A stretch of 64,000 nt of DNA from Candidatus Micrarchaeia archaeon (GTDB lineage: Archaea > Micrarchaeota > Micrarchaeia > Anstonellales > Bilamarchaeaceae): assembly GCA_041649555.1 (NCBI GenBank), contig JBAZMS010000001.1, positions 119,219 through 183,218 on the forward strand, given 5' to 3'. Of this stretch, positions 48,220 to 64,000 are shown piece after piece. The translations under genes were made by a program, and so were the position numbers. Each line of letters opens with the position of its first letter. Position 1 is the stretch's first letter. The notes below the pieces were generated by a model, which saw only the letters and a program-made list of their open reading frames with translations, was not told the DNA's origin and ran no database searches.

Positions 48220-49566
48220 ATGTCTTTTTTGGAAGGAGAGAAAATTATAATAGAGGGGGTAATTCTTAGATCCGGAAGCTATAGGGCCGCGACAAACAGC
48301 ATATCTGATGGAAAAAATTTATTTGAATTGATTTATTCTTATCATCTAGAAGAAGGGTCCTGTTTTAGGGTATCTGGAGAAATCGTTAATTTTAGAGGAA
48401 TTCTCAAACTCAAGGTATTGGAAACCGAGCCTGTGCCTAATTCAGTTTATGAAAAAACAGAAAAAAAAGCAATGGATTCTGCACCTATAAAAGAGCAGTT
48501 TATCTATGAAGATGAAACCACAAGGAAGTTAAAAGAAAAGATAATTCTTTTTTCAAGAAAGCTTTATGCTGCTATGCATCTTAGAAAAAACTGCGCAGTC
48601 CGGTTTCACAACGATGGAGATGGAATCTGCGGGGCAATATGCATTAATCTCTTTTTAAAAGGAGAATACATCCAGCAAAATTCTGCAATTTATTCTATAA
48701 GGGATGCAATGAGAGATATTTCCAATCTTTCAAATTCAAAACATCCCCTTTTGGTGCTTGTTGATTTTGGCTCAAATGAAGAAAGTTTTGAAGCGCTTTC
48801 CCTTATAAAATCTGCCAAAATCGAAGTTTTAATAATTGACCATCACCCTGTTTTTGAAAAAACAATGGAAGGTTTTGAAGTATTAAATTTCTGGGAAACA
48901 AAAAATCCACTAAGCTCAAAATATACCGCAGGATATATATGTGCAGAGATTTCACATCTTTTGGGAAATGACTCAACAACCTATGCAAAAATCGCCCTGA
49001 ATTCTGACAAAAGTGATCTTATGGATTATACCCTGGATGAAAAAAATGCCGGGCTTGTATTAAATTATGCAGCAGCGTATTCTTCCCATCAAACCAGCCT
49101 CAATTTTTACCGTTCAATTCTAAAAAATAAAGATCTTTTTGATTCGATGCTCTATCAGGCCCAGGATAAAATTGACCAGCTGGTATCTGTAAGCCGGAAT
49201 CAGATGAAAGAAAAGAAAATCAAAGAATTTAATCTGTATTATCTCAATCTTGGAGCGCTTGTAAAAAAATTTGAGTTTCCAGGTCTTGGAAAATCTGCAA
49301 CCCAAATTTTTGATGCCCTAATTCCAAAAGACAAGCCTTCAATTCTCCTCTGCTACGGGCCAAAATCGATCGTGTTAAGATTAAACGATTTAGCAGTTGA
49401 GAAAGGGGCGAATGCGAACGAAATAATTGAATATCTAAAATCTTCTGCTCCCGGGGTAATTGAAAGCGGAGGCGGGCATATACGGGCTGCTGCAATCAGG
49501 GTGAGAGAAGAGTTTGAAAAGTCAATGATTGATGAAATAATCAATTATCTTGAGAATTTAAATTAA
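48220..49566 (+). CDS. DHH-family phosphoesterase with an N-terminal OB-like fold (archaeal RecJ/Cdc45-like candidate)
   Basis: DHH motifs HNDGDGICGA, LVLVDFGS and LIIDHHP. C-terminal GGGH-like ESGGGHIRAAA. Confidence 0.7.
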   Translation: MSFLEGEKIIIEGVILRSGSYRAATNSISDGKNLFELIYSYHLEEGSCFRVSGEIVNFRGILKLKVLETEPVPNSVYEKTEKKAMDSAPIKEQFIYEDETTRKLKEKIILFSRKLYAAMHLRKNCAVRFHNDGDGICGAICINLFLKGEYIQQNSAIYSIRDAMRDISNLSNSKHPLLVLVDFGSNEESFEALSLIKSAKIEVLIIDHHPVFEKTMEGFEVLNFWETKNPLSSKYTAGYICAEISHLLGNDSTTYAKIALNSDKSDLMDYTLDEKNAGLVLNYAAAYSSHQTSLNFYRSILKNKDLFDSMLYQAQDKIDQLVSVSRNQMKEKKIKEFNLYYLNLGALVKKFEFPGLGKSATQIFDALIPKDKPSILLCYGPKSIVLRLNDLAVEKGANANEIIEYLKSSAPGVIESGGGHIRAAAIRVREEFEKSMIDEIINYLENLN

Positions 49567-50097
49567 TTTTTTTCCCTTCCATTCTGCCTCATCTATTCTT
49601 TTCTTATAATTGGCCCACCTTGCGCAAACAAATAAAAAATCAGACAGTCTATTGAGGTATGCCGGAATTTCTTTTCGTATTCTTTCTTTTTTTGAAAGAG
49701 TTGAAACCCTTCGCTCAGCTCTTCTTGAAACTGTTCTTGCAAAATGAAGTATTGATGACCCGATTGTTTTTCCAGGGATTATAAAATGATTCAAAGGAGG
49801 CATTTCTTTTTCATAACCATCTATCCATTCTTCAAGCCGTTTTATTTCAATTTGGGTTATTTTTTTATAATTTTTTCCTCCTGAAAGTTCTACGCCCATA
49901 ATAAATAATTCTTTTTGAATCTCTTCGATTTGTTTTTTTATTTGCATTTCATCTATTTTGCATCTTACAAGCCCGAGTATCGCATTTAATTCATCAATTG
50001 TTCCATAAGCTTCAACTGCCAAATCGTCTTTGTATACTTCTTTTCCATCGAGAAGGGATGTTTTTCCTCCATCTCCCCTTTTTGTGTAAACAGGCAT
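49558..50097 (-). CDS. ATP:cob(I)alamin adenosyltransferase, PduO/MMAB type
   Basis: N-terminus VYTKRGDGGKTSLLDGKEVYKDDLAVEAYGTIDELNAILG, about 180 aa. Confidence 0.85.
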   Translation of the reverse strand: MPVYTKRGDGGKTSLLDGKEVYKDDLAVEAYGTIDELNAILGLVRCKIDEMQIKKQIEEIQKELFIMGVELSGGKNYKKITQIEIKRLEEWIDGYEKEMPPLNHFIIPGKTIGSSILHFARTVSRRAERRVSTLSKKERIRKEIPAYLNRLSDFLFVCARWANYKKRIDEAEWKGKKLI

Positions 50098-50160
50098 AAA
50101 GAAATATTTGAATTAAAATTAATAAACTTGCCGTTCTTTTAATGATTCTGCAAATTCTTT

Positions 50161-50545
50161 AACCCAAGTCCAATACAAGATTATAAAAGGGCCATATCAA
50201 ACAATAGAAAATTATTCTCCTAATTTCTTTCAAGTTGTATTAGTCTTTTTGTTTTGGGGTGACCACTTAGACCTTTTAACCCAAGTCCAATACAAGATTA
50301 TAAAAGGGCCATATCAAACAATAGAAAGTTGTTATCCTAATTTCTTTCAAGTTGTATTAGTCTTTTTGTTTTGGGGTGACCACTTAGACCTTTTAACCCA
50401 AGTCCAATACAAGATTATAACAGGGCCATATCAAACAATAGAAAGTTGTTATCCTAATTTCTTTCAAGTTGTATTAGTCTTTTTGTTTTGGGGTGACCAC
50501 TTAGACCTTTTAACCCAAGTCCAATACAAGATTATAAAAGGGCTA
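50161..50545. repeat. Tandem direct repeat, 117-bp unit x 3.3 copies
   Basis: Unit starts (AACCCAAGTCCAATACAAG...) at 50161, 50278, 50395 and 50512, an exact 117-nt period. Copies 2 and 3 differ at one position (AAAAGGG vs AACAGGG). Copy 1 differs in an 8-nt patch. The fourth copy is truncated after 34 nt, next to the RNase P RNA 3' end. Confidence 0.95.
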
Positions 50546-50546
50546 G

Positions 50547-50758
50547 TGATGGGAAGCATAGTCTGCCTTCTGTGTGGTTAGGCAACATTCGACTAAGCGG
50601 CGCAAAGGCCTTGCATACCACAGGCAATTCAAAAGCCGTTTCATCCTCAGAGAGGTAATCGTTTCTGTTCTTTTGAATCCGCCCTTAAGGCGTTGCCTGC
50701 ATAAAGGTATGGGCAGAACTTCCTCAGAAGAACTCCGTGAGTTGCCTGCTTCCCATCA
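50547..50758 (-). ncRNA. rnpB: RNase P RNA, unusually compact (about 212 nt)
   Basis: On the minus strand, the P1 5' strand UGAUGGGAAGC pairs with GCUUCCCAUCA, and the P2 strand AGGCAAC pairs with GUUGCCU. A P3 hairpin is present. A CR-I-like GAGGAAGUUCUGCCCAUACC compares with bacterial GAGGAAAGUCCGGGCUCCAUAGG. A CR-V-like ACAGAAGGCAGACUAU-P1' compares with ACAGAACCCGGCUUAU-P1'. P4 forms as UCUGCC/GGCAGA. P5 forms as CAUACC/GGUAUG, with nested helices between its strands. Confidence 0.75.
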
Positions 50759-50870: not shown

Positions 50871-52235
50871 ATGCACATCTGCAATGAGGATATATTGGAT
50901 TTAATACAACAAGGAAAAACAAATGAACTAGTTAAATTAGGAAGCAGAGTAGTAAAACCCATGATATCATTATTATCACATTCAAGTATGAAAGTTAGAA
51001 ATGGATGTATCGAAGCACTAGCAGAAATAGCGAAAACAGATGAGACCACATTTCAAAGACTAATTGAGGAATTAAACACTCCACGCTTAAACGTTGAACA
51101 ATATATACATGTCAAAAGAGGTTGCATATATGCGTTGGGCCTGGTAGGTGATAAAAGAGCGGCAAAATCTTTGATAATATCTCTTTTACACGGTTCAGAT
51201 GATATTAGAAAAGCCTGTGCAGAAGCATTAGGTTCAATAGGAAATCAAAAAGCAGTGAGTGCATTATTAATACACGCATCGTCAAATCGCTATTTTGACA
51301 TCAGACAAGCATGTGTGATGGCATTAATACATATAGGGAAAAAAGATAGGCACAGTTCCTATGAATTAATTAATGAATTGAATACCAATAGTTCTCTTAG
51401 TATAAAATCTATCTGCGCACGAGTATTAGGGATGATAGGAGAACGCAGGGCAGTAGATGCATTAATAGAAGGATTAAAAAATTCAGATGAGAATGTCCGG
51501 ATATCATGTGAAAAATCTTTAATATTAATAGCAAAGTCTAATGAGAAGACCTTCCAGAGACTAATTAAAGAATTGAAAACCAATCGAAATCGTAAAATTA
51601 AAGAAACCTGTGCAGATGCGCTGGGAATAATAGGGGATAAAAGGGCCGTGGACGTTTTGATAGAATCACTGGATGATTTTTATCGTTTTAGTAGGGAAGC
51701 CGAAGTAACAGTGATAAATGCATTGGGTTTAATAGGGGATCCCAAAGCAGTTACGCCCTTAATAAGAATATTGAAAAGAGATATAAAGAAGACCTCACCG
51801 AACAGCCAGAAGAAAGCCAATAAAGCATTGGTAAACATAGCAAAATTGGATAAAGTTACTTTCTATCTATTAATTAGTGGATTGTTGCCAATAGGAAAAA
51901 ACAATACAGAAGATTGTATAGGAATATTAACGGAAAACACAGATGAAAAAGGATCATGTTTTATAAAAATAATCTGTGAAAGGAGTGAAGAATGTGCATT
52001 AGAAATAGGAATGGAAAAAACCTTGGCAACCATCAAAGAATACATAGGATTCATAAAAGATTATTATACCAAAGAAGAACTAAAAGAAATCCAAATCAGG
52101 TTATATTCCTTCTACAGAAAAACATTTGAAGAAGAATCTAGTTCAAGAATAAAAATGGATTTACCTAAACTAGAGATAAAACCACCAAAGAGAGGCCCTG
52201 AAATATGTGCCAAATTATTGAGGGTAGGATCATGA
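50871..52235 (+). CDS. HEAT-repeat (PBS-lyase type) paralogue A, 454 aa
   Basis: Has the family N-module ...DILDLIQQGKTNELVKLG, multiple ALGxIGDxRAVxxLI/DxxVRxxC repeats, and the family C-module ...GMEKTLATIKEYIGFIKDYYTKEELKEIQIRLYSFYRKTFE...MDLPKLEIKPPKRGPEICAKLLRVGS. Confidence 0.8.
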   Translation: MHICNEDILDLIQQGKTNELVKLGSRVVKPMISLLSHSSMKVRNGCIEALAEIAKTDETTFQRLIEELNTPRLNVEQYIHVKRGCIYALGLVGDKRAAKSLIISLLHGSDDIRKACAEALGSIGNQKAVSALLIHASSNRYFDIRQACVMALIHIGKKDRHSSYELINELNTNSSLSIKSICARVLGMIGERRAVDALIEGLKNSDENVRISCEKSLILIAKSNEKTFQRLIKELKTNRNRKIKETCADALGIIGDKRAVDVLIESLDDFYRFSREAEVTVINALGLIGDPKAVTPLIRILKRDIKKTSPNSQKKANKALVNIAKLDKVTFYLLISGLLPIGKNNTEDCIGILTENTDEKGSCFIKIICERSEECALEIGMEKTLATIKEYIGFIKDYYTKEELKEIQIRLYSFYRKTFEEESSSRIKMDLPKLEIKPPKRGPEICAKLLRVGS

Positions 52236-53296
52236 TTACAAAAGAAGAAGTATTAAAATTAATACAACAAGGAAAAACTGAAGAACTAGTTGCTCTAGGT
52301 CCAGAAGCATATGATACTCTTTTCAGGGGGCTTGCAAATGAATTTCCATCAAGAAGATCTACTTGTTGCAGGGCATTAGTAGAAATTGCCAAAAAAGACC
52401 AAGATGTTTTTGAAAGGTTAATGTCAGATACTTCAGGAAATTATAGTTATACCTCTGTACAACTTAGGATCAAAAAATGCCATCTGTGGATCTTAGGCGA
52501 AGTTGGCGACACTAGAGTAGTCCCATACCTTTTCTCTTTTCTGGACCGTTCGCCCCATGAGTTTGAGGAGAGTATCTCTATTGCACTGGCAAAAATAGCA
52601 AGAACAAACGAAGAAACCTTCCAACGCTTAATTAATGAAATCCTGCATATTAAAGACCGGAAGATAAAAGCTCAATGCAGTTGTATCAGGGCATTATGTT
52701 TATTGAAGGATTCCAGGACATCAGAAGTATTGATCAAGACATTTTCAAGTTCTTTTGATTCTGCTGTTCTAGGCTTATGTGAAAAAACATTGGCAGAAAT
52801 AGCAAAAACAGATGAAAATACTTTAGAACTCTTGATTCAGACATTAAAAAATAATTTAGATCCGAATGTTAAGTTTCACTGTGCAATGGCATTAGGAACC
52901 ACAAACAGAGCAGATTTAATCGATATATTAGTGACTATGTCATTTATAGACAAAGATCTAGATCTTAAGTTTGCATGCACAAGAGCTTTGGGAAATATAA
53001 AAGATCCAAGGGGTCTTGCTTTCAAGAAAGTTATCTATGACAAAGACAAAGATTATGCATTAAAGATGGGAATAGAAAAAACCAGAGCAACCATAAAAGA
53101 ATATCTAGAACTTATAAAAAATTATTATTCTAAAGAAAGGGTAGGTGCGATTAAAATTGAATTACATTCCTTTTTTAGAGAGGTATTTGAAAAGGCAACA
53201 GACTTGAAGCCATGTATGGATTTACCTGAACTAAAGATAAAACCACCAAAGAGAGGCCCTGAAATATGTGCCAGATTAATGACGGTAAGAGTATGA
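52232..53296 (+). CDS. HEAT-repeat paralogue B, 354 aa
   Basis: ATGA overlap with A. Starts MITKEEVLKLIQQGKTEELVALG and ends MDLPELKIKPPKRGPEICARLMTVRV. The start is set to MITK by analogy with paralogues D and F. Confidence 0.8.
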   Translation: MITKEEVLKLIQQGKTEELVALGPEAYDTLFRGLANEFPSRRSTCCRALVEIAKKDQDVFERLMSDTSGNYSYTSVQLRIKKCHLWILGEVGDTRVVPYLFSFLDRSPHEFEESISIALAKIARTNEETFQRLINEILHIKDRKIKAQCSCIRALCLLKDSRTSEVLIKTFSSSFDSAVLGLCEKTLAEIAKTDENTLELLIQTLKNNLDPNVKFHCAMALGTTNRADLIDILVTMSFIDKDLDLKFACTRALGNIKDPRGLAFKKVIYDKDKDYALKMGIEKTRATIKEYLELIKNYYSKERVGAIKIELHSFFREVFEKATDLKPCMDLPELKIKPPKRGPEICARLMTVRV

Positions 53297-54522
53297 TTAC
53301 AAAAAAAGAAGTATTAGAGTTAATACAACAAGGAAAAACTGAAGAATTGATTTCATTAGGACCTAAAATAGCAGAGCCTCTATTAGCCATATTAGAATAT
53401 TCAGATCTCCCTGAAATTCATATGATTGCAAGCGTATTGGCTGAACTGGCAAAAAAATATGAATGCATCTTTCAGCGACTAACCAAGGAGCTGAATTTCA
53501 AAAAATTCAAGAATAATTTAAATCTCAGGATAGGTTGTGCAGAAGCATTAGGAAAAACAGCATCCCCTGTAGCAGTCATTTTTCTTCTTGACAGCTTAGG
53601 ATGCGACCCAGACCCCAACGTCCGAATCTTATGTGCGAAAGCCTTAGGAGAGATAGGAGATCCAAGAGCAGTAGATGGATTAAAGAAAAGTATCTATGAT
53701 TATGAGTATGTTAATAGGGCGTCCGTTTCCGCGTTGAAAAGGATAGGAACCCAGAAGGCACTTAATTCATTAGCCTGGAAATTAAGGTCTGAAAATATCC
53801 TATTCGATATCTGTGAAGAGGCTCTTATAACCACCGGTGGTTTGAAGGTATTACAAGCATTAATACATAGCATGGGCATCATGCATAATGGAAATCCATC
53901 TCATCGTGACAGCTGTGTAAAAATCTTTACAGAATTGGGCAAAAAAGATGAAATTTTTTTTCAGGGTTTGATCCATGAATTTGAAAATAATCAGAATTGG
54001 GTCGTTAGAGAAATATGTGCAAGAGCATTTGAACTTATAAAAAACCCAAAAGCAGTAAAAGTATTAATAGAAGGATTAAAGGATAATCGTGTGGAGGTCA
54101 AATTAGCGTGCATCTCTGCATTAGGTTCAATCGGAGGTCCTGGCGTAATTGATTTGTTAATAATCCATTTAGCAGACAGCTCCCTTGGTTTTAAATGCGC
54201 AAAAGCACTGGAAAATATAAAAGATCCAAGAGGTCTGCACTTCAAAAAAATAATTTATGACCGCGCAGAGAGTTATGAATCCGTATGTTATATATCAAAA
54301 ATAGGAATAGAAAAAACCCGGGTAATAATTCTTGAATATCTAGAAATGATAAAAGACCATTATCCGAAAGAGAAACTAGCTAAAATCAAAATCAACTTGT
54401 TCTCATTTTACAGAAGAGCGTTCAACTCTACTTCTAGACCACCAATGGAGTTACCTATCTTTGCCGTTAAACCTAAAAAGGTCGGTCCTAGGATATGTGC
54501 TAGATTAACGGTTGTAATATGA
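53293..54522 (+). CDS. HEAT-repeat paralogue C, 409 aa
   Basis: ATGA overlap with B. Starts MITKKEVLELIQQGKTEELISLG, has HEAT repeats, and ends in a more divergent tail MELPIFAVKPKKVGPRICARLTVVI. Confidence 0.8.
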   Translation: MITKKEVLELIQQGKTEELISLGPKIAEPLLAILEYSDLPEIHMIASVLAELAKKYECIFQRLTKELNFKKFKNNLNLRIGCAEALGKTASPVAVIFLLDSLGCDPDPNVRILCAKALGEIGDPRAVDGLKKSIYDYEYVNRASVSALKRIGTQKALNSLAWKLRSENILFDICEEALITTGGLKVLQALIHSMGIMHNGNPSHRDSCVKIFTELGKKDEIFFQGLIHEFENNQNWVVREICARAFELIKNPKAVKVLIEGLKDNRVEVKLACISALGSIGGPGVIDLLIIHLADSSLGFKCAKALENIKDPRGLHFKKIIYDRAESYESVCYISKIGIEKTRVIILEYLEMIKDHYPKEKLAKIKINLFSFYRRAFNSTSRPPMELPIFAVKPKKVGPRICARLTVVI

Positions 54523-55349
54523 TTACAAAAAAAGAAGTATTAGAGTTAATACAACAAGGAAAAACAAATGAATTAGTTAAATTAGGAAGCAGAGCAGTAA
54601 AACCCATGATATCATTATTATCACATTCAAGTATAAAAGTTAGAAATGGATGTATCGAAGCACTAGCAGAAATAGCGAAAACAGATGAAAATACTCTCCA
54701 GAGACTAATTCAAGAATTAAAAACTAATAAAAAATGTAAAACTAGGATAGGTTGTGCAGATGTATTAGGTTTTATACGGGATTCAAGAGTAGCAGAACCG
54801 TTAATAAAGGAATTAAAAACTAGTCGAGATTGGCTCGTTGGACGAAGTTGTGCAATTTCGCTAAGTCGGATAATAGACCCAAAAGCAGTAAAAGTATTAA
54901 TAGAAGGATTAAAGGATGAGGATTCAGATGTTAGAAAACCGTGCGCAGCTGCATTAGGTATAATTGGGGATATAACGGCAGTAGACTTTCTAATCTTAGG
55001 ATTAACGGATAATAATGTTAATCATCCTTTTGCACATGCATTAGAAAATATAAACGATCCAAGAGGTCTTGCTTTCAAGAAAGTTATCTATGACAAAGAC
55101 AAGGATTATGCATTAAAGATAGGAATAGAAAAAACCAGAGCAACCATAAAAGAATATCTAGAACTTATAAAAAATCATTATTCTAAAGAAAGGATAGGTG
55201 AAATTAAAGTTGAGTTATATATCTTTTACAGAAAAGTATTTGAAAAGGCAACAGACTTGAAGCCATGTATGAAGTTACCTGAACTAAAGATAAAACCACC
55301 AAAGAGAGGCCCTGAAATATGTGCCAGATTAATGACGGTAAGGGTATGA
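54519..55349 (+). CDS. HEAT-repeat paralogue D, 276 aa
   Basis: ATGA overlap with C. Starts MITKKEVLELIQQGKTNELVKLG and ends MKLPELKIKPPKRGPEICARLMTVRV. Confidence 0.8.
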   Translation: MITKKEVLELIQQGKTNELVKLGSRAVKPMISLLSHSSIKVRNGCIEALAEIAKTDENTLQRLIQELKTNKKCKTRIGCADVLGFIRDSRVAEPLIKELKTSRDWLVGRSCAISLSRIIDPKAVKVLIEGLKDEDSDVRKPCAAALGIIGDITAVDFLILGLTDNNVNHPFAHALENINDPRGLAFKKVIYDKDKDYALKIGIEKTRATIKEYLELIKNHYSKERIGEIKVELYIFYRKVFEKATDLKPCMKLPELKIKPPKRGPEICARLMTVRV

Positions 55350-55519
55350 TTACAAAAGAAGAAGTATTAAAATTAATACAACAAGGAAAAACTGAAGAAT
55401 TGATTTCATTATGACCTAAAATAGAGTTGCCCCAGTTAAGCATCAAAAAACCAAAGCATCCATATAAGATATATTATCCTTCAAAAAATTCGCATTTAGC
55501 TCAAACATTAATAAACTAA
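55346..55519 (+). pseudogene. Collapsed HEAT-family paralogue: N-module fused to a degenerate C-tail, interrupted by an in-frame TGA
   Basis: ATGA overlap with D. Reads MITKEEVLKLIQQGKTEELISL, then TGA (55412-55414; paralogue C has GGA Gly at this position), then in frame PKIELPQLSIKKPKHPYKIYYPSK..., which resembles the family tail ELPELKIKPPKRGPEI. Confidence 0.7.
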
Positions 55520-55563
55520 CACTTTAAAAATCTTTTTATATTAATTATATTAGGTGTAATTTT

Positions 55564-56640
55564 ATGAATTCAGCCAATAACAATTGTGTAATGCGAGAAT
55601 TAAATCCGCCTACTTTGGCAAATGGAAGTTATAGACGGACGAGGGGAGGAATTTTTATTCCAGAAAGGAATGTTCTGTTAGACACCCTGAAAAAAACAAT
55701 AGTTCCACCAGATAAAAAGCTAAATTATATCCCTTATGGTGATGAACTTAATTCGCTAGAAATAGCACAGAAAACAGGACAGGCTGTTCTTTTTGCAGGT
55801 CCAACAGGAGTTGGAAAAAGTATGCTTGCCCTGAAATATGCTCAAAATACTGGCCTACCCTTTCTTTATTCCACATGCGATCCGGATAAGACGCAGGGCC
55901 AATTAATGGGAAAGCCAAATTTATTATTTTCTGTAGTTGAATTGGATGGAAAGCCCTTTGTAATCAGCAATCAGGTTTTTATGCCCTCAAATATTTCTAT
56001 TGCTGGTCTTGCTGGAGAAAAGGTTATAATTTTTATAGACGAACTCCATAAACTAAGAAAGGATGTTGATGTATTATTCCACCCTCTTTTACAGGAGAGA
56101 ATAGTGAACTTGTCTGATCACTTAGGTCCAGGAGAGATTTATAATTTACATCCCGAATCTCTCATAATCTTTTCTTTGAATCCTTATTACGGCGACAGTG
56201 GAATTGAAAAGGTCGGCCCTGCGATGCGACAAAGAGTCAAGACACTCTATTTTCCGATGATTACTGATGAAAATAAAATTTTTGAAATTGTAAAGGCAAA
56301 TGTTGATGGTTATGAAAATTTGGCAAAGGATAAACAGGAGACATTTAAACGGATAGTTCTTATGAGCATGGCTATTGCTAGAATTTATCTTGAATACAAA
56401 AAACAGGGAACTACGAATCAGGATGATTTAACATTAAAAAATGAGTTAAAAAATAGTCTTCCTTTAATTAATGAAGCGCCTTCACCACGATTACTTGTTA
56501 ATGTTGCCAAGTGTATAGTAGCAGGCCAGAATCCTCGCGATGCATTGATAGAAGGACTTTTTAATGCAATAACCAATGACTTTGGTTTGACTACAAATGG
56601 ATTTTTAACCCAGGCAATGTCATGGTATAATATCAGATGA
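55564..56640 (+). CDS. MoxR-class AAA+ ATPase, CbbQ/NorQ/GvpN-like (AAA_5)
   Basis: Walker A FAGPTGVGKSM, Walker B VIIFIDELH, sensor-1 IFSLNP, Arg-finger region GPAMRQRV, sensor-2 SPRLL. 358 aa. Own TATA-like (CTTTTTATATTA) and AGGTG upstream. Confidence 0.85.
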   Translation: MNSANNNCVMRELNPPTLANGSYRRTRGGIFIPERNVLLDTLKKTIVPPDKKLNYIPYGDELNSLEIAQKTGQAVLFAGPTGVGKSMLALKYAQNTGLPFLYSTCDPDKTQGQLMGKPNLLFSVVELDGKPFVISNQVFMPSNISIAGLAGEKVIIFIDELHKLRKDVDVLFHPLLQERIVNLSDHLGPGEIYNLHPESLIIFSLNPYYGDSGIEKVGPAMRQRVKTLYFPMITDENKIFEIVKANVDGYENLAKDKQETFKRIVLMSMAIARIYLEYKKQGTTNQDDLTLKNELKNSLPLINEAPSPRLLVNVAKCIVAGQNPRDALIEGLFNAITNDFGLTTNGFLTQAMSWYNIR

Positions 56641-56652
56641 TGGTTGTCTTCA

Positions 56653-59283
56653 ATGTCCAAATTAAAGGAAAAACTAACTGGAAAAATAGTTCCTTTTAAA
56701 CCTGTTAAACCTAAAAATGATCCTCTTCTCGAGGAGTTTGATAAAGTAAGATTATGTATGGATGCAGCAGTATCTAGATTTGGAGAATTAATTTTTGAGG
56801 CCAAAGAAGAAGAAAAAAAGAAGGAAATGAAAGAAAACTTTCCTGTTTTAAAGAAATTAATCAATTCTCTTTTATCAGGAGACAAAGAATCACAAGACAG
56901 GTTGCTGTTTTTTGCCCATTGCATGGTCGAACTGAATTCCTCCGGCCATTATATCTCTAGGGATTATCTGATTGAAAATGCACTAACTATTCTAAGTCAC
57001 AGTGCGTGGAAGGTAAGCCAATTGCAATATTGCCTCTCTGAATTTCAGAGCGATATAACCAGTTATTTTTTTATGACATATTTTCTCCCTAAAATTGGTG
57101 AAAGGGTTTATTGGAATACCTTTGTCTCTGAATTGAATAATTACGAAGAGGATTATGTCTATAAATGTTTGGCCGAAGATCTTTTAGCAGAGTATCTTAT
57201 ACATTTTAATGAAACTGTAATGCTGGCAGAGGAAGCAGTTTATAAATATGGATTAGTGCGATACCCTCAGTTAATTTTTGGAAAAGATATGCCTATTGAA
57301 ATAGGAAAAGAAGATAGTTTTCACACAAATTCCAGCGGCAAAATAGTAATCCCGCCATATGTTAATACTTTTCAAAGCAAGGAGGAAAATTCACTAGTAT
57401 ATCTAATCCTTTTTCATCATGAGATGGGGCACCATCTTTTCAGAACCTTTGATGTGAATCTGGACCCCAGGATTTTCGATTATCAGGCTTTCAGAGTTAG
57501 ATATCTCAGGCATACCACGCATAAGGGCCAGCTTGAAATTACTGTTGAAAGAGAAGGAACGGAAATAAAAGTAAATTCATTTGCAAAACTACTCTACCTT
57601 GTCAAATATCCCATATTACTACATTTTCTTCACAATATTGTTGATGACGGCAGGATAGATGCCAACAATATCGAGCGCTTTTCCGGGATAGCTGAAGACT
57701 ACAGGCAAATTGTGGAAAAACATTTTGAAAAAAGATGCAAGCTTGAACATTCTGATCTGGGAACTTTTCTTGAGGCCATGCTCCAGTACGCAATTGTTGG
57801 AAAGACAAGAAACGAGGTTCCGGCCGGTCTGAAAGCAAAGTTTAACAAGGCAAGAAAGATAATGAATGAGATGGATTTTGGTCCTGAAACTGATGGAACA
57901 GATTCAATGAATGTTGCAATAAAACTTTATAATCTTGTATTAGAGGATTTTGAGCAGTTGGTAAAGAATCTTTCAGAAAGAGAACTACCAGAATCGATGA
58001 TGAATTCTTCTACTGACTCGGGCAAAGCTCCAAACCTTATTATGAAAGATCCTCCTTGCAAGAAACAAAAAAGGAGGCCGGGGGTAAATCCGTTCGATTT
58101 GATCAATAATGATTCAGAACCCGGGGATAATAATGGGGAGGATGTTCCTTTGGAACCTACCTCCGAACCAAACAAAAAGAAAAATCCAGAAAATAGCAGT
58201 GGTGAAGAAGGCGAAGAGGAAAACAAACCCGGAAAAAAAAGCGATAAAAAACCAGAAGAAAATGATGATGAACCAAAAGCAGAAAATGGCAGTGGTGAAG
58301 AAGGCGAAAAGGAAAAAAAACCAGAAAAAACAGGAGACAATAATCCTGCAGGGGCAAATCCGTATGGGAATCTTAAAACAGGAGAGCAAGGTGACGCAAA
58401 TAGAAATGATCGAAACACTCCCACAATTTTCTATTATGATGGTTGGGACGGATTCAAGCAAGTATTTGAAGAACACAGGGTAGAGCAATTGCATGCAGAC
58501 GGCAAACTCCTTACATACGATCCTGCAGAAGAGGAAAAAATAAGGAGAACATTCAGGAAATATGCCCCAAAGACAGGAGTTCTGGTTAGAGGAACTGAAG
58601 ATGGAGACATTGACCCGGAATTACTATCTCAATATTTTCTCGATCTGAGGGCAGGAAAACTCGAGGACATGAATTTTTATCAGAGAGTATTATATGAGCA
58701 GAGGGATGTTGCAACAATGGTTCTTGTAGATTTAAGCGGAAGTGCCCTAATTGTAAAACCGCAGATACTTGATTCCTGCGCAGTACTCGGAGTGGCAAGC
58801 GATACCCTCCATGATCCGTTGCTTATTGCAGGATTCAGCGGAGATCTTGGCGATGAGAAATTTATTGTTATGAAGGGCATTCATGAAAAAGACATCACTT
58901 CCAGCGAATACAGCTCTAATACTCCATTAGGGGGTCCATTAAGGCATTGTAGTTATTTGATGGGAAATGTCTATGAATTAAAATGCAAGGGATTTAAACA
59001 GCTTTTTGTGATAACTGACGGGGCTGCCAATGTTGGAAAAAATCCAGTAGAAGATGCGAAAAAGGCAGTTGAAGAGGCTTGGAAAAAGTACAGGATCAAT
59101 GTTATGGCATTCGGGATATTAAATCAAGATGGTCCAGTATCTTATAGCGAGATGGAAAAATACCTTGAATCTGTATTTGGGGCTGGAAATTATTTTATAA
59201 TAACTGATAAAGATGTTGACAACAAATTTTTGCATCATTACTTCGAGAGATATTACCGGAAACAGGTAAATAAAGTGAGGTAA
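56653..59283 (+). CDS. CbbO/NorD-like von Willebrand factor A protein with an HExxH-containing N-domain and an acidic repeat linker
   Basis: NorD/CbbO-like FYYDGWD motif. DLRAGKLEDMNFYQRVLYEQRDVATMVLVDLSGS contains a MIDAS DxSxS, and ...FVITDGAANVG follows. HHEMGHH lies at 57415-57435. A 31-aa E/K/G-rich repeat starts at 58189 and 58282. ATG at 56653; a TTG at 56644 is also possible. Confidence 0.8.
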   Translation: MSKLKEKLTGKIVPFKPVKPKNDPLLEEFDKVRLCMDAAVSRFGELIFEAKEEEKKKEMKENFPVLKKLINSLLSGDKESQDRLLFFAHCMVELNSSGHYISRDYLIENALTILSHSAWKVSQLQYCLSEFQSDITSYFFMTYFLPKIGERVYWNTFVSELNNYEEDYVYKCLAEDLLAEYLIHFNETVMLAEEAVYKYGLVRYPQLIFGKDMPIEIGKEDSFHTNSSGKIVIPPYVNTFQSKEENSLVYLILFHHEMGHHLFRTFDVNLDPRIFDYQAFRVRYLRHTTHKGQLEITVEREGTEIKVNSFAKLLYLVKYPILLHFLHNIVDDGRIDANNIERFSGIAEDYRQIVEKHFEKRCKLEHSDLGTFLEAMLQYAIVGKTRNEVPAGLKAKFNKARKIMNEMDFGPETDGTDSMNVAIKLYNLVLEDFEQLVKNLSERELPESMMNSSTDSGKAPNLIMKDPPCKKQKRRPGVNPFDLINNDSEPGDNNGEDVPLEPTSEPNKKKNPENSSGEEGEEENKPGKKSDKKPEENDDEPKAENGSGEEGEKEKKPEKTGDNNPAGANPYGNLKTGEQGDANRNDRNTPTIFYYDGWDGFKQVFEEHRVEQLHADGKLLTYDPAEEEKIRRTFRKYAPKTGVLVRGTEDGDIDPELLSQYFLDLRAGKLEDMNFYQRVLYEQRDVATMVLVDLSGSALIVKPQILDSCAVLGVASDTLHDPLLIAGFSGDLGDEKFIVMKGIHEKDITSSEYSSNTPLGGPLRHCSYLMGNVYELKCKGFKQLFVITDGAANVGKNPVEDAKKAVEEAWKKYRINVMAFGILNQDGPVSYSEMEKYLESVFGAGNYFIITDKDVDNKFLHHYFERYYRKQVNKVR

Positions 59284-59344
59284 TGCAATGGTGAGCTTTT
59301 ATGATATCTAATATTGGATTCATTTTCAGACTTAGGGGTTGAAT

Positions 59345-60514
59345 ATGACCACAGAAATATCAAAATTAATGGAACTTGGGAAAAAAGAAGAATTAGTTAA
59401 ACTAGGTCCTGAAGCAGTAGAATCTATCATACCCCGGTTATCCAGTTCGTATTTACATCTCAAAGAGTATCGCATAGAAGCATTGGCAGAAATAGCAAAA
59501 ACAGATGAAGGTGGTTTCCAGAGACTAATTAAAGAATTAGTAACTAATGAAAATTGGAGGGTTAAAGCAGGTTGTGCAGAAGCATTAGGTCTAATAGGAG
59601 ATCTAAGAGCAGTAGGAGCATTAATAGAAGGATTAAAAGATAAAGATTTAGATGTTAGAGAAGCCTACATGAAAGCCTTAGTAGAAATAGCAAAAACAGA
59701 TGAAGGTGGTTTCCAAAAACTAATAATTAAATTAGGAATTGGAGTGGTAACTGATTTAATAAAGGAGCTAAAATATTATCATGAGTCTGCAATTAAAGAA
59801 TATATCATACAAACATTAGCCGAAATAGCAAAAACAGATGAAAAAACCTTCCAGATACTACTTAAAGAATTAGAAACTAATGAAAGTTGGTGGATTAAAA
59901 TAGATTGTGCAAAAGCACTAGGTCTAATAGGAGATCCAAGAGCAGTAGGAACATTAATAGAAGGATTAAAAGATAAAGATTCAGATGTTAGAAAAGCCTG
60001 CATGAAAGCCTTAGTAGAAATAGCAAAAACAGATGAAAATACTTTAGAACTCTTGATTCAGACATTAAAAAATACTTTAGGTCTGAATGTTAAGTTTCAC
60101 TGTGCAAAAGCATTAGGGCAGATAGGAGATCCAAGAGCAGTAGGAGTATTAATAGAAGTATTAAAGGATGAAGATTCAGATGTTAGTGAATCCTGCGCAA
60201 AAGCATTAGAAAATATAAACGATCCAAGAGGTCTGCACTTCAAAAAAATAATTTATAATAAAAGTGAAGATTATGCTCTAGAACTAGGAATAGAAAAAAC
60301 TAGAGCAACCATAAAAGAATATCTAGAACTTATAAAAAATCATTATTCTAAAGAAAGAATAGGTGAAATTAAAGTTGAGTTATATATCTTTTACAGAAAA
60401 GTATTTGAAAAGGCAACAGACTTGAAGCCATGTATGGATTTACCTAAACTAGAGATAAAACCACTAAAGAGAGGCCCTGAAATATATGCCAAATTAATGG
60501 GGATAGGATTATGA
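59345..60514 (+). CDS. HEAT-repeat paralogue E, 389 aa
   Basis: N-module variant MTTEISKLMELGKKEELVKLG. Four near-identical ALxEIAKTDE..FQ.LIKEL..NE.W..K..CA.ALGLIGD.RAVG.LIEGLKDKD.DVR units. Family C-module ending MDLPKLEIKPLKRGPEIYAKLMGIGL. Confidence 0.8.
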   Translation: MTTEISKLMELGKKEELVKLGPEAVESIIPRLSSSYLHLKEYRIEALAEIAKTDEGGFQRLIKELVTNENWRVKAGCAEALGLIGDLRAVGALIEGLKDKDLDVREAYMKALVEIAKTDEGGFQKLIIKLGIGVVTDLIKELKYYHESAIKEYIIQTLAEIAKTDEKTFQILLKELETNESWWIKIDCAKALGLIGDPRAVGTLIEGLKDKDSDVRKACMKALVEIAKTDENTLELLIQTLKNTLGLNVKFHCAKALGQIGDPRAVGVLIEVLKDEDSDVSESCAKALENINDPRGLHFKKIIYNKSEDYALELGIEKTRATIKEYLELIKNHYSKERIGEIKVELYIFYRKVFEKATDLKPCMDLPKLEIKPLKRGPEIYAKLMGIGL

Positions 60515-61569
60515 TTACAAAAGAAGTATTAGAGTTAATACAACAAGGAAAAACAAATGAACTAGTTAAATTAGGAAGCATAGTAGTAGAGCCCATGATA
60601 TTATTATTATCAGATTCAGGTATAGAAGTCAGGAACGGATGTATTGAGGCACTGGCAGAAATAGCAAAAACAGATGAAAATACTTTAAAACTCTTGATTC
60701 AGACATTAAAAAATAATTTAGATCCGAATGTTAAGTTTCACTGTGCAAAAGCATTAGGGCAGATAGAGGATCCAAAAGCAATAAGCGCATTAATTTTTAT
60801 GATGGAATATGGTGGATGCAATCTTTCTGAAGTTTGTTTGGACATATTAGTTAAACTTGCAAGAAGAAATAAGGATGTTGTTGATCAATTAATCATTGAA
60901 TTTGAAAATCCCCCCCCCATAATCATAAGAGGCTATGGGTGTTGCGCAGAAGCCTTGGGCGAAATAGGAGATAAAAAAGCAACAGCTGTTTTATTTAATG
61001 GATTGCGTAATTATTTTATGATAAGAGAATTATGTGCTAATGCCTTGGCAAAAATAGCAGAAAGAGACGAAGAAACATTTGAATTATTAGTTGAAGGATT
61101 AAATGACTCTACTCTTTTTGTTAGAAAGGCCTGCGCAGGAGCTTTGGGCAAAATAAAAGATAAAAGAGCAGTAGATCCCCTGATAAGAGGCTTGCAAGAT
61201 CCTGAACCTGAATTTAAACAAGCCTGTGCTAATGCACTCGAGAACATAAATGATCAAAGAGGCGTACATTTCAAGAGAATTATTCATGATAGATTTTATG
61301 ATATCATTCCTGGTTCTGCGCAGCATTATGCATTAAAAATAGGAATGCAAAAAACCCTTGAGATTATTAGGGAATATTTAGAATTAATAAAAAAAGATTA
61401 TCCAAAAGGAGAAATAAAAGAGATTCGGGTAAGTTTGTTTGATTTTTACAGAAAGGCATTTGAAAAAAGTTCTGCGCACAGAGTTAGGTTGGAATTACCT
61501 GAATTAAAGATAAAACCACCAAAGAGAGGTCCTGAAATATGTGCCAGATTAATGAGGATAGGATTATGA
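60511..61569 (+). CDS. HEAT-repeat paralogue F, 352 aa
   Basis: ATGA overlap with E. Starts MITKEVLELIQQGKTNELVKLG and ends LELPELKIKPPKRGPEICARLMRIGL. Confidence 0.8.
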   Translation: MITKEVLELIQQGKTNELVKLGSIVVEPMILLLSDSGIEVRNGCIEALAEIAKTDENTLKLLIQTLKNNLDPNVKFHCAKALGQIEDPKAISALIFMMEYGGCNLSEVCLDILVKLARRNKDVVDQLIIEFENPPPIIIRGYGCCAEALGEIGDKKATAVLFNGLRNYFMIRELCANALAKIAERDEETFELLVEGLNDSTLFVRKACAGALGKIKDKRAVDPLIRGLQDPEPEFKQACANALENINDQRGVHFKRIIHDRFYDIIPGSAQHYALKIGMQKTLEIIREYLELIKKDYPKGEIKEIRVSLFDFYRKAFEKSSAHRVRLELPELKIKPPKRGPEICARLMRIGL

Positions 61570-62777
61570 TTACAAAAGAAGAAGTACTAAGGCTAGTAAA
61601 ACAAGGAAAAACAAATGAATTAGTTAAATTAGGAAGCATAGTAGTAGATATACTAATTGAAAGTTTAAACTCTAACATTGATACCAAACATAGTATAACA
61701 GCCTTAGTAGAAATCGCAAAAACAGATGAAAATACTTTTCAAAGGCTAATTAAGGAATTGGAGAATAATACCTCTTGGAAGAGTAGAAGATACATTGCCC
61801 AATCATTAGGTTTACTAAAAGATAAAAGAGCAGTAAAAGCATTAGTAACAAGATTAGAAGACGAAAATGAAAATTTCCTTGTTAGAGAATCATGTGCAGA
61901 ATCCCTAGGAAAAATTAGGGATCCAAAGGCAGTAGATCCCCTAATAGAACTATTAAAAATCCACATGGGGGACCTTATGGAATCCTGCACAGAAGCATTG
62001 GCAGAAATAGCAAAAACAAATAGAAATACTTTTCGAAGAATAACTACTGAATTATTAAATAGTGATTCTGAAAATGTCAAGAAAGCCTGTGTAATGGCAC
62101 TAGACCTCATAAATGATTTAAGAGCAGTAGATTATTTGATAAAAGGATTAAAAGATAAAGATTCGGATGCTAGCCCAAGTATTATACATTTACTGGCCAA
62201 AATCGCAAGGAAAGATGACAGTACTTTCCAAAAACTCATAAAAGAATTATTGACCAATAATCTTCAATCTGTTAGGTTTTGCTGTGCAGTAGCATTAAAA
62301 TGTGTGGGGGATAGAATAGTAGAAAAAAATATAGAAAAAAGATTATTTGAGCTTTCGAAAAAAAATTCTTACACGAAAGGAGAATTTGCAAAAATAAAAC
62401 TTGAGATATATAAAATTTACTTTGAAATAACTGGGCACAAAAGTTTTCTAAGAGTAATGAATGAATATTTGTCTATAATACGGGATAAGACTTCAAAGAA
62501 AGAGTTTGCAAAAACAAAACTTGAGCTGTATAGGGCTCATGTAACTATAGTGGGATCAGAAAAAACATTAGAAACCATCAAAGGATATCTAGAACTTATA
62601 AAAAACGATTATTCCAAAGAAGAACTAGATAAAATTAAATTAAACTTATATTCTTTTTATAGAATGGTGTTTGAGTGTGAATCAGCCATAAGAGGAAAAA
62701 TGGATTTACCTAAACTAGAGATGAGACCACCAAAGAGAGGTCCTATAATACATGCTCAATTGAGGGTTGCAACATGA
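61566..62777 (+). CDS. HEAT-repeat paralogue G, 403 aa, with a triplicated C-terminal helical unit
   Basis: ATGA overlap with F. Starts MITKEEVLRLVKQGKTNELVKLG. Has three successive copies of the ...EFAKIKLEIY.IY... unit. Ends MDLPKLEMRPPKRGPIIHAQLRVAT. Confidence 0.8.
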   Translation: MITKEEVLRLVKQGKTNELVKLGSIVVDILIESLNSNIDTKHSITALVEIAKTDENTFQRLIKELENNTSWKSRRYIAQSLGLLKDKRAVKALVTRLEDENENFLVRESCAESLGKIRDPKAVDPLIELLKIHMGDLMESCTEALAEIAKTNRNTFRRITTELLNSDSENVKKACVMALDLINDLRAVDYLIKGLKDKDSDASPSIIHLLAKIARKDDSTFQKLIKELLTNNLQSVRFCCAVALKCVGDRIVEKNIEKRLFELSKKNSYTKGEFAKIKLEIYKIYFEITGHKSFLRVMNEYLSIIRDKTSKKEFAKTKLELYRAHVTIVGSEKTLETIKGYLELIKNDYSKEELDKIKLNLYSFYRMVFECESAIRGKMDLPKLEMRPPKRGPIIHAQLRVAT

Positions 62778-64000
62778 TAAACTCGGAAGAAACGTGGGGC
62801 GTATTAGAATTAATACGCAAAGGAAAAACCAAGAAACTAGTTAAATTAGGAAGAGAGGCAGCAGATATTTTAATAGCAGAATTGCAGAATCCCCATTTTG
62901 TTCATAAACAAACTTGTATAAACTCCTTAGTAGAAATAGCAAAATCCGATGAAGAAACTTTTCAGAGACTAATTGAAGAATTGGAAAATAGTAAAAACTT
63001 GAAAATTAAAGCAGGTTGTGCAAAAGCATTGGGTTTAACAGGGAATAGAAGGGCAACCACTGCATTAATAGAAGAGTTATGCAAAAATGATGGATCATCG
63101 TATCAATATTCTGATGTTAAAATAGCCTGCGCAGAAGCATTAGGCATGATGAGAGATAAACAAGCAATACCCTATTTGGTAAAGGAACTAAGGAATATGA
63201 ACCGTTCAGTTGGATTTGCCTGTATAAAATCCTTGGGAGAAATTGGAGGTCTGGCTGGGGCAGAAGCAATAATACAAAGATTAGAAGAGATAATAAATAT
63301 TTCAGGAATATGGGGAGATTTAGAAACAATTTGTAAAGAAACGCTAAGCAACATGGCTAAAAAAAATAAAGCCGTCCAGCAGTTTTTAATATATAAATTT
63401 GAGAATTCTGGTAATAACACAGTGAAAAATGTTTGCTTACAGGCGTTATGTCATATTGCTGATCCAAAACTTGCAGAATTTTATATAAAGAATTTAACTG
63501 GTCCTGCAGGTCCTGCTGTATATTGTGCAGAAGCATTAGGAAAAATAAAAGATAACAGAGCAATACCTTATTTATTAAATGGGCTAGAAAAAGAATATCA
63601 CGGTCTTAGAAGAGCCTGCGCAGAAGCATTAAAGAAAATAGGTGATCCAATAGCCGTAGATTATTTAATTAAACGATTGACAGACCTCCATCCTTCTGTT
63701 CGAAAAGCTTGTTCTGAAGCATTAAAGAAAATAGGTGATCCAAGAGGACTCTATTTTGAGAGAGTTATCTATGATGATGCAGGTGCTTTAAAGATCGGCA
63801 TGGATAACACCCTGAAAATTATTAAAGAATATCTTGATTTCATAGCAGATGAATATCCCGAGGAAAGAACAAGACAAATTAGACTAGGTTTATTTTTATA
63901 TTATAGAAGAATATTTGAAAAAGAATCCAGTTCAAGAATAAAAATGGAATTGCCTGAACTAAAAATAAGACCACCAGTGAAGGGCCCTATACTATATACT
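62774..64000 (+). CDS. HEAT-repeat paralogue H (3' end outside the window)
   Basis: ATGA overlap with G, and the frame is open for all 409 codons to the window edge. It is not in the ORF track because no stop is present. Reads MINSEETWGVLELIRKGKTKKLVKLG..., CAEALGKIKDNRAIPYL, CSEALKKIGDPRGLYFERVIYDD, ...MELPELKIRPPVKGPILYT. Confidence 0.8.
   Translation, partial: MINSEETWGVLELIRKGKTKKLVKLGREAADILIAELQNPHFVHKQTCINSLVEIAKSDEETFQRLIEELENSKNLKIKAGCAKALGLTGNRRATTALIEELCKNDGSSYQYSDVKIACAEALGMMRDKQAIPYLVKELRNMNRSVGFACIKSLGEIGGLAGAEAIIQRLEEIINISGIWGDLETICKETLSNMAKKNKAVQQFLIYKFENSGNNTVKNVCLQALCHIADPKLAEFYIKNLTGPAGPAVYCAEALGKIKDNRAIPYLLNGLEKEYHGLRRACAEALKKIGDPIAVDYLIKRLTDLHPSVRKACSEALKKIGDPRGLYFERVIYDDAGALKIGMDNTLKIIKEYLDFIADEYPEERTRQIRLGLFLYYRRIFEKESSSRIKMELPELKIRPPVKGPILYT

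Follow-up and report, generated by a model that had tools for sequence, protein, structure and literature searches.

Tandem HEAT-repeat paralogues with a common basic tail adjoin a MoxR-class ATPase and a NorD-type VWA adaptor in a Candidatus Micrarchaeia archaeon and related lineages

The DNA analysed here (hereafter the window) comprises 64,000 nucleotides from a Candidatus Micrarchaeia archaeon (GenBank assembly GCA_041649555.1, contig JBAZMS010000001.1, positions 119,219 to 183,218 of the forward strand). At positions 50871-64000, mapping of the open reading frames (ORFs) placed eight plus-strand HEAT_PBS/HEAT_2 paralogues, a remnant of another one, a CbbQ/NorQ-like MoxR AAA+ gene and a gene for an 879-aa protein with a C-terminal NorD-type VWA domain, which we call the adaptor. 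In all lineages in which we found the adaptor, its gene is abutted by HEAT genes whose products carry the same short basic C-terminal tail. We regard the cluster as real, conserved, rare and mechanistically suggestive, and it appears to be undescribed so far; its parts come from known superfamilies, and the function proposed below is tentative. An earlier interpretation made from the letters of the window (the sequence-only reading) had divided each HEAT protein into an N-module, repeats and a C-module. Alignment of the window paralogues bore this plan out, showing conserved N- and C-terminal modules and, between them, alternating repeats in variable number, but the N-module and the C-module of about 95 aa turned out to be specific to this lineage and not universal. 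The features of the cluster are as follows.

50871-52235, plus strand: HEAT-tail paralogue A, 454 aa (HEAT_2 E 1e-34, HEAT_PBS E 2e-24; C-module profile match)
52232-53296, plus strand: HEAT-tail paralogue B, 354 aa counted from the MITKEEV start (ATGA overlap with A; C-module profile match)
53293-54522, plus strand: HEAT-tail paralogue C, 409 aa (variant tail KPKKVGPRI)
54519-55349, plus strand: HEAT-tail paralogue D, 276 aa (no complete paralogue is shorter; used for modelling)
55254-55346, plus strand: basic tail of D, residues 246-276, TDLKPCMKLPELKIKPPKRGPEICARLMTVRV (predicted disordered; an example of the conserved tail)
55346-55516, plus strand: collapsed paralogue remnant (N-module, stop codon, frameshifted tail fragment)
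55564-56640, plus strand: MoxR-class AAA+ ATPase, CbbQ/NorQ/GvpN-like, 358 aa
56644-59283, plus strand: 879-aa adaptor, whole gene
56644-58038, plus strand: adaptor N-terminal domain, residues 1-465 (HE[CM]GHH at 57418-57435; FLHN[VI][AV]DD.R.D at 57625-57660)
58039-58428, plus strand: acidic Glu/Gly/Pro/Lys-rich linker of the adaptor, residues 466-595 (defined by composition)
58429-59283, plus strand: NorD-type pre-VWA region and VWA domain of the adaptor (DxSxS at 58729-58743, Thr760, Asp792)
59339-60514, plus strand: HEAT-tail paralogue E, 391 aa from TTG or 389 aa from ATG at 59345
60511-61569, plus strand: HEAT-tail paralogue F, 352 aa (ATGA overlap; C-module profile match)
61566-62777, plus strand: HEAT-tail paralogue G, 403 aa (C-module hairpin internally duplicated)
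62774 to beyond 64000, plus strand: HEAT-tail paralogue H, 415 aa when complete (P0013), ending 6 codons past the window edge

The ORF map reproduced the plus-strand gene order given by the sequence-only reading (A to D, remnant, AAA+, VWA, E to H), and the 4-nt ATGA stop/start overlaps by which it had chained the paralogues were seen at seven junctions (A/B, B/C, C/D, D/remnant, E/F, F/G and G/H). Within the window, paralogue H is open as it had stated; the complete protein extends 6 residues beyond the edge. The remnant at 55346-55516 translates as MITKEEVLKLIQQGKTEELISL, i.e., the 22-aa N-module up to a stop codon, and then continues out of frame with ..PKIELPQLSIKKPK.., a tail fragment which matches the C-module profile weakly (E 0.11). 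A scan with the same profile yielded no further C-module copies in the remaining 50 kb of the window. The suspicion that the paralogy might be an assembly artefact of collapsed or expanded repeats could be ruled out, because a contig from an independent assembly (sequencing run SRR8542065) is 100% identical to positions 55382-59517, the paralogues are only 38-55% identical over the whole protein, and the same architecture recurs in relatives. As a caveat, segments of 100-300 nt with 93-96% identity could mislead short-read assemblers on the exact junctions.

The adaptor defines a very rare family. Among 5.8e9 proteins it is represented by two full-length clusters, namely the window's own and P0002 (28% identity), and the remaining matches are confined to the VWA domain. 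In GTDB genomes and Joint Genome Institute (JGI) metagenomes, scans added adaptor fragments on three further contigs from two more lineages. One adaptor relative belongs to a 'Candidatus Micrarchaeota archaeon' genome, and none was found in IMG/VR. The loci are arranged as follows.

Window, GC 34%: four HEAT genes, remnant, AAA+ gene, adaptor gene, four HEAT genes
L001-3, GC 58-59%: AAA_5 gene, adaptor gene, three HEAT genes that overlap, followed by SRP54 and thermosome
L013, GC 48%: AAA+ gene, HEAT gene, adaptor gene
L011 (lineage of L013), GC 48%: adaptor gene, then 7 HEAT genes
L012 (lineage of L013), GC 48%: adaptor gene, then at least 9 HEAT genes
L009, GC 42%: HEAT gene, the stop codon of which overlaps the adaptor ATG by 8 nt

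The 8-nt overlap of a HEAT stop codon with the adaptor ATG is present in L013 as well as in L009. The lineages holding the adaptor are at about 30% identity to one another. In 4/4 of them the adaptor is abutted by HEAT genes with the common tail, and the AAA+ gene is adjacent in 3/3 lineages where that side is visible. The orders differ (AAA-VWA-HEATx3; AAA-HEAT-VWA-HEATx7 to 9 or more; HEATx4-AAA-VWA-HEATx4), and so do the flanks, which consist of the RNase P RNA gene in the window, HAD hydrolase and SRP54 genes in L001 and ribosomal protein genes in L011. Since gene order and neighbourhood vary, yet the set stays together, the cluster carries the classical signature of a functional unit. No conserved neighbours of the pair other than HEAT-tail genes were present in any locus examined. 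The sequence-only reading had considered that the HEAT family might be dispersed and unlinked to MoxR/VWA genes in related genomes; linkage was instead found in every adaptor-bearing lineage, but it does not extend to the divergent family members in L014, L016 (both from one metagenome-assembled genome (MAG) of GC ~31%) and L015, which lack a nearby MoxR/VWA pair.

The element common to the HEAT proteins of all adaptor-bearing lineages is a basic C-terminal tail of ~25 aa with the motif hydrophobic-L-x-[DE]-x-P-KPPK[KR]G-x-[IV]-[YC]-x-x-[LM]-R, which takes the following forms.

Window: ..MDLPELKIKPPKRGPEICARL..
L001: ..DIMLDDKPKPPKRGQVYQEMRRV..
L011-13: ..DKGILLTDIPKPPKKGxIYxxxRRV..
L009: ..GELLLGDTVKKPKKDGKVYRELRKV..
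L005: ..GGELLRDTVKPPKDGMYRAMERR..

The L005 sequence bridges the two C-module forms. Across lineages, the HEAT bodies are less than 35% identical and barely alignable, but the tail is kept nonetheless, and its retention from 34% to 59% GC indicates that conservation acts at the protein level. In the AlphaFold2 model of D, residues 246-276 have predicted local distance difference test (pLDDT) values below 50 and are predicted to be disordered. The tails are always basic, with net charges of +2 to +7; the HEAT bodies have charges between -11 and +9, whereas all three parts of the adaptor are acidic. Family members without a nearby MoxR/VWA pair (L014, L016, L015) have degenerate or different tails, and this small sample is suggestive of a tail type that tracks the presence of the pair. 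At the locus L015 (2737-8452, GC 43%), five or more paralogues in tandem combine the same C-module with a different, longer tail, ..KKDAPLxDxELTRxAxxRMExRK...PRIFRQ.., and no MoxR/VWA gene was found within the 8.4-kb contig.

All eight HEAT paralogues of the window scored above the Pfam gathering thresholds for HEAT_2 (E 1e-16 to 1e-34) and HEAT_PBS, in agreement with the earlier count of at least eight, and four more (P0011, P0010, P0008 and P0015) are encoded on another contig. An exhaustive HMMER search of 1.84e9 representatives with the C-module gave 19 matches, consisting of 8 window proteins, 10 relatives and 1 false positive (P0018). The four additional paralogues are deposited in succession (MFA5050254-257) in a 'Candidatus Micrarchaeia archaeon' MAG and adjoin a thermosome gene, which brings the paralogues known from the window's lineage to 12 on two contigs; P0008 is also present in run SRR8542065, the same run that contains the exact copy of the window core. 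On the JGI contig L017 (875-2427), P0011 is directly followed by P0008, whereas the NCBI MAG order places P0010 between them, and P0010 and P0011 share an identical C-terminus of ~95 residues. Either the copy number varies, or the assembly collapsed at this repeat. In public annotation, the proteins of the cluster are recorded only as 'HEAT repeat domain-containing protein' or 'hypothetical protein'.

In the model of D (pLDDT 89.7), residues 1-245, including the C-module, form one continuous helical solenoid, and a Foldseek search with this model returned alphaRep HEAT binders as best matches (7q1f_C, E 5e-7; 33-41% identity). Matches of the HEAT proteins to the di-iron enzyme DOHH were weak. 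As in alphaRep/Mth187-type PBS-lyase HEAT-like proteins, the canonical repeats are 31 residues long with invariant framework positions and peaks of entropy at positions 8, 9, 12 and 16, as calculated from 11 repeats only. We take these to be the positions that are randomised in alphaRep binder libraries. The alphaReps themselves are artificial binders, and we know of no natural relatives of them with this C-module or tail, with recombining arrays or with linkage to MoxR/VWA genes. In paralogues A, C, D, E, G and H, the canonical repeats (e.g., at 59573-59647) contain a Cys in C-A-x-A-L-G that was invariant in the 11 scored repeats; relatives and typical PBS-HEAT repeats have Ala at this position, the Cys being specific to the window's lineage. 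Between 62300 and 62700, paralogue G contains about 2.5 copies of the C-module helical hairpin, which are recognised as three C-module hidden Markov model domains. Assignment as phycobilin lyase CpcE/CpcF or as NblB was rejected, since the scores of 25-77 bits compare with NCBIfam equivalog cutoffs of 220-330; that the organism is a non-photosynthetic archaeon also speaks against a phycobilin lyase.

From its sequence, the motor is assigned to the CbbQ/GvpN/NorQ subgroup of MoxR ATPases. The CbbQ/NorQ type proposed by the sequence-only reading is borne out by matches to known structures (NorQ 9qh4, E 5e-12; CbbQ 5c3c, E 2e-10; 5c3c/6l1q at ~1e-10; overall to 3e-10) and to the Pfam models AAA_5 (E 3e-11) and CbbQ_C, where the score of 20.6 bits is exactly the cutoff of 20.6. 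Three orthologues retain Walker A (GPTGVGKS), Walker B (IFIDELHK), sensor-1 Asn206, Arg222 and Arg224. An identity as GvpN was dismissed, because the protein reaches only 34.5 bits with the GvpN equivalog model vs. a cutoff of 266.8.

The 879-aa protein has no Pfam match, and even the Pfam VWA model by itself stays under its threshold (13.6 vs. 23.8 bits), so that the earlier assignment to the NorD/CbbO type is upheld by similarity to NorD instead. As a single sequence, residues ~597-855 align with NorD at E 0.0018, and a six-sequence family profile searched against the PDB retrieved NorD chains 9qh6_G (E 1.6e-11) and 9qhd_G (E 9.4e-10), the match taking in the VWA domain in full as well as the pre-VWA region. 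D696, S698, S700, T760 and D792 align with the residues of the MIDAS of NorD (its metal-ion-dependent adhesion site), and the DxSxS-T-D motif is intact. The preceding linker (residues 466-595) is acidic with a net charge of -9 and a pI of 4.7, and comparable linkers are present in the orthologues. At 58182-58351 it contains an internal 93-nt tandem duplication with 81% identity (repeat family D14), which indicates that the linker is evolving by repeat expansion. The N-terminal domain of ~465 residues had been missed by the sequence-only reading. It matched nothing in Pfam, NCBIfam, PADLOC, PHROGs or the PDB profile search, which included the NorD chains, but contains the motifs HE[CM]GHH, FLHN[VI][AV]DD.R.D and TDGTDS[ML]NVA, which are invariant in the 4-5 orthologues.

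The arrangement resembles NorD, which consists of an N-domain, a disordered linker and a VWA domain; its N-domain has been proposed to provide target specificity, and its MIDAS binds acidic residues of the target (PMC9976466). We tentatively favour, at somewhat less than even confidence, the reading that the cluster encodes a remodeller similar to NorQD or CbbQO, with the HEAT-tail proteins as clients or receptors that dock via their tails. The 358-aa MoxR ATPase would form the motor ring, and the 879-aa protein would be its single adaptor, contributing a novel N-terminal specificity domain with the metal-type motif HExGHH, an acidic disordered linker and the NorD-type VWA/MIDAS domain that would couple to the AAA+ ring. 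In each HEAT-tail protein, the variable alphaRep-like solenoid would be the ligand-binding part, and the tail would be a grip shared by all paralogues, on which the adaptor takes hold of each of them. Hydrolysis of ATP might then load, release or exchange the HEAT proteins or their cargo. This reading draws on the identities of the AAA+ and VWA parts, the conserved and translationally coupled linkage, the conservation and predicted disorder of the tail and the purifying selection on the adaptor; the docking role of the tail, the adaptor domain that would bind it and the ligands of the HEAT bodies are inferred, and the role given to the adaptor N-domain is guesswork. The sequence-only reading had thought of the paralogues as possible substrates, adaptors or sensors, a suggestion that is still tentative.

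Several observations weigh against this remodeller. MAG GCA_964559795.1 contains members of the HEAT family 7-10 kb away from any AAA_5/VWA gene, and no adaptor homologue was found from it, indicating either that the HEAT family can exist without the pair or that the MAG is incomplete. The linkage is drawn from a small sample of four lineages, mostly on short metagenomic contigs. The AlphaFold2 model of the adaptor N-domain, based on a two-sequence alignment, was unusable (pLDDT 33). Overlap with the start codon and ribosome-binding region of the next gene dictates some of the conservation at the very end of the HEAT proteins, although it can explain only the last three or four residues of the tail. 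Finally, no single acidic residue of the tail is strictly invariant, as might be expected of a MIDAS ligand.

In nucleotide sequence, the paralogues of the window are mosaics: B and D have C-modules with 93% identity, and a block of 109 nt in B recurs in F at 96% identity (repeat family D7) and in E at 93%. The L011 and L012 strains share 94% nucleotide identity over the adaptor gene and the first two HEAT genes as well as over the downstream junction, but the interiors of their arrays (L011 3680-7911 vs. L012 3756-10139) are non-orthologous, with 5 vs. 7 HEAT genes and best pairs of 30-53% amino acid identity. In this pair of strains the adaptor is under strong purifying selection, with a ratio of nonsynonymous to synonymous substitution rates (dN/dS) of 0.07 at dS 0.42, as compared to dN/dS of 0.31 and 0.24 at dS 0.11 and 0.06 for the two shared HEAT genes. 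The low and discordant dS and the higher dN/dS of the HEAT genes point to recent exchange or conversion combined with faster protein change. Because the 3-gene array of the L001 lineage is identical in three samples, such turnover is not universal.

Diversification of this kind would suit HEAT arrays that act as fast-diversifying binders sensing foreign or host molecules, with the MoxR/VWA pair as a nucleoside triphosphate-dependent switch. We consider this unlikely, though it is compatible with docking via the tail. It gains from the mosaic gene conversion in the window, the non-orthologous interiors between ~94% identical flanks and the contrast in dN/dS (0.24-0.31 vs. 0.07) with its discordant dS. 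The variability at repeat positions 8, 9, 12 and 16 points in the same direction, but it is a general trait of the PBS-lyase-type HEAT repeat class, which weakens the argument for a repertoire. The stable L001 array also runs counter to this reading, as does the translational coupling, which implies that all paralogues are made together, and the cluster lies among housekeeping genes and not on an island. Viral relatives were not found, and PADLOC and PHROGs gave no match for the adaptor, only a generic P-loop match for the AAA+ protein and only a generic HEAT-ARM match for the HEAT protein. A comparable setting was described by Kaur, Burroughs, Iyer and Aravind (2020) for MoxR-vWA ternary conflict systems, which are defined by a third component, VMAP, place their repeats in the effector position as fusions with the vWA protein and typically use caspase or trypsin effectors; HEAT and TPR arrays, and occasionally metallopeptidase domains, accompany the vWA protein in the predicted systems (PMC7159879). 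The window shares with them the MoxR and vWA core, the use of repeat scaffolds and the theme of diversification; it differs in lacking the fused architecture, in that a Pfam scan, which included no VMAP-specific model, showed no VMAP-like gene or effector domain (nuclease, toxin, caspase or trypsin), and in residing in archaea with tiny genomes. The more specific idea that the arrays are a natural, recombination-driven library of alphaRep-like binders, a germline repertoire of receptors for fast-changing host-cell or viral partners, plugged by their tails into an AAA+/VWA (possibly peptidase) machine that would read out or reset binding, seems to us equally doubtful.

The HE[CM]GHH motif raises the alternative of proteolysis, in which a zincin-type N-domain of the adaptor would cleave the HEAT tails to activate, release or degrade the proteins while the VWA domain and the AAA+ ring present the substrate. 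We judge this rather improbable. The motif is invariant in all orthologues and is located at the end of a predicted helix, and a second invariant motif, H-N-[VI]-[AV]-D-D, follows 71 residues downstream; together they recall, in our estimation, the HExxH ... E-x-x-A-D spacing of M48/M56 gluzincins. A conserved disordered tail also has the look of a protease recognition site. However, no peptidase family was detected for the N-domain by Pfam, NCBIfam or PDB profile searches, even at E 10, its structural model was unusable as mentioned above, HExxH arises by chance and in non-protease metal sites, and no conserved small-residue cleavage signature is evident. A similar plan is known from the COG3864/DUF2201-type peptidase-VWA proteins, which have an N-terminal HExxH domain and a C-terminal VWA domain and are encoded beside a MoxR ATPase. 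The adaptor matches them in these respects, including the adjoining MoxR gene, but the corresponding Pfam models gave no match at E 10, and it is about twice as long, with an acidic linker and a NorD-like VWA domain. Peptidase-plus-VWA proteins paired with MoxR, as well as peptidases in MoxR-vWA systems, are known (PMC7159879).

It is also conceivable, but quite unlikely in our view, that there is no direct link between the two parts of the cluster and that the HEAT-tail family is an independent expansion, e.g., of scaffolds or co-chaperones near the thermosome, the adjacency being synteny inherited within one clade. Family members without a nearby MoxR/VWA pair (L014, L015, L016) would fit, as would arrays adjoining a thermosome gene in three lineages with or without the pair, and all lineages may belong to one phylum. 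Yet the linkage outlasts rearranged gene orders, differing flanks and ~70% divergence at the protein level between lineages, and HEAT genes are interleaved with the adaptor gene and overlap its start codon.

Least probable, and in our opinion very unlikely, is a metallochaperone or cofactor-insertion function, by which the pair would open the HEAT proteins or a scaffolded complex while HExGHH handles the metal, as for NorQD (iron, NO reductase) or CoxDE (copper, CO dehydrogenase): both motor parts do have their nearest relatives in cofactor-insertion or activase systems (PMC9976466), the N-domain has several invariant His and Asp residues, and PBS-lyase-type HEAT proteins include the cofactor handlers CpcE/F and NblB and the enzyme DOHH, to which matches were weak, but the HEAT bodies have no metal-ligand motif common to all lineages (the per-repeat Cys being confined to the window's lineage), the CpcE/F, NblB and CobT models scored far below their cutoffs, and no known metallochaperone target resembles a set of a dozen hypervariable clients.

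Among described systems, NorQ-NorD and CbbQ-CbbO are similar in that the AAA+ protein is closest to NorQ/CbbQ, the C-terminus of the adaptor has its homologue in the pre-VWA region and VWA domain of NorD, the plan of N-domain, linker and VWA is the same, and the VWA gene adjoins and follows the AAA+ gene. They differ in that the N-domain of the window adaptor (~460 aa) has no sequence relation to NorD and bears HExGHH, that no Rubisco, NO reductase or other enzyme target was seen in the flanks inspected, that the linked genes encode hypervariable HEAT proteins sharing one tail, in tandem sets of 3 to at least 9, and that the host is a DPANN archaeon. With an N-domain unrelated to NorD and no nor or cbb target in these flanks, the adaptor has a NorD-type VWA domain but is not NorD or CbbO. 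CobS-CobT, ChlI-ChlD and Rea1/Midasin combine an AAA_5-type ATPase with a partner in which an acidic linker precedes a MIDAS/VWA domain, a plan that the window pair shares. A chelatase (CobST/ChlID) was nevertheless rejected on account of sub-threshold matches throughout (CobT 21vt, E 0.72; TIGR02442, E 0.25; CobT, CobS_N and Mg_chelatase), and neither CobN nor ChlH genes were present in the window ORFs scanned or in the related loci. Searches of databases and of the literature library available yielded no characterised operon, defence model, phage family or publication matching the cluster, in line with the sequence-only reading, which knew of no described system with this architecture.

The window otherwise encodes housekeeping functions, including aIF5B, PheRS, H+-PPase, SecDF, archease and a DHH phosphoesterase. 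These flanks and the lack of relatives in IMG/VR led us to reject a mobile element or virus. An archaeal RNase P RNA gene lies on the minus strand at 50548-50757 (210 nt vs. 288 model positions; 91 bits at a gathering score of 84); it is compact, with one helical element of 5 instead of 47 nt and another of 6 instead of 39 nt. Its 3' end is abutted by a 117-bp unit repeated 3.3 times head to tail with 98% identity (50158-50543), which had no Rfam match; an interpretation as CRISPR was rejected because the copies lie head to tail without spacers. A cobalamin adenosyltransferase gene at 49558-50097 is not conserved in the related loci, which was a further reason to reject a chelatase. Two large ORFs of 628 and 384 aa, overlapping at 44736-47773, are without a Pfam match; their products start with hydrophobic residues, are rich in N-x-S/T sites and may be surface or secreted proteins. 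In other loci, HEAT-tail arrays are located immediately upstream of thermosome genes (Cpn60_TCP1; L006 2807-4444, L016 10915-12561, L001 16140-17810), one of these three lineages being without a nearby MoxR/VWA pair. The adjacency could be synteny retained from an ancestor, or it could reflect a functional tie to the chaperonin.

MoxR/VWA pairs are widespread, but their clients are known in few cases, and target recognition is poorly understood. A conserved, predicted-disordered tail of ~25 residues on every co-encoded partner is an unusually explicit candidate recognition element for such a pair. The system would also present a natural counterpart of the alphaRep binder scaffold, which is of interest for protein engineering. 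If true, the receptor-library reading would describe a new class of prokaryotic recognition system, built from a conserved handle and interchangeable solenoids. DPANN archaea are host-dependent and have genomes of ~1 Mb. In the window alone, the locus takes up ~13 kb, and more if the four additional paralogues belong to the same genome. Such an investment by a small genome, together with strain-variable arrays, suggests that the system matters for something that is under fast-changing selection.

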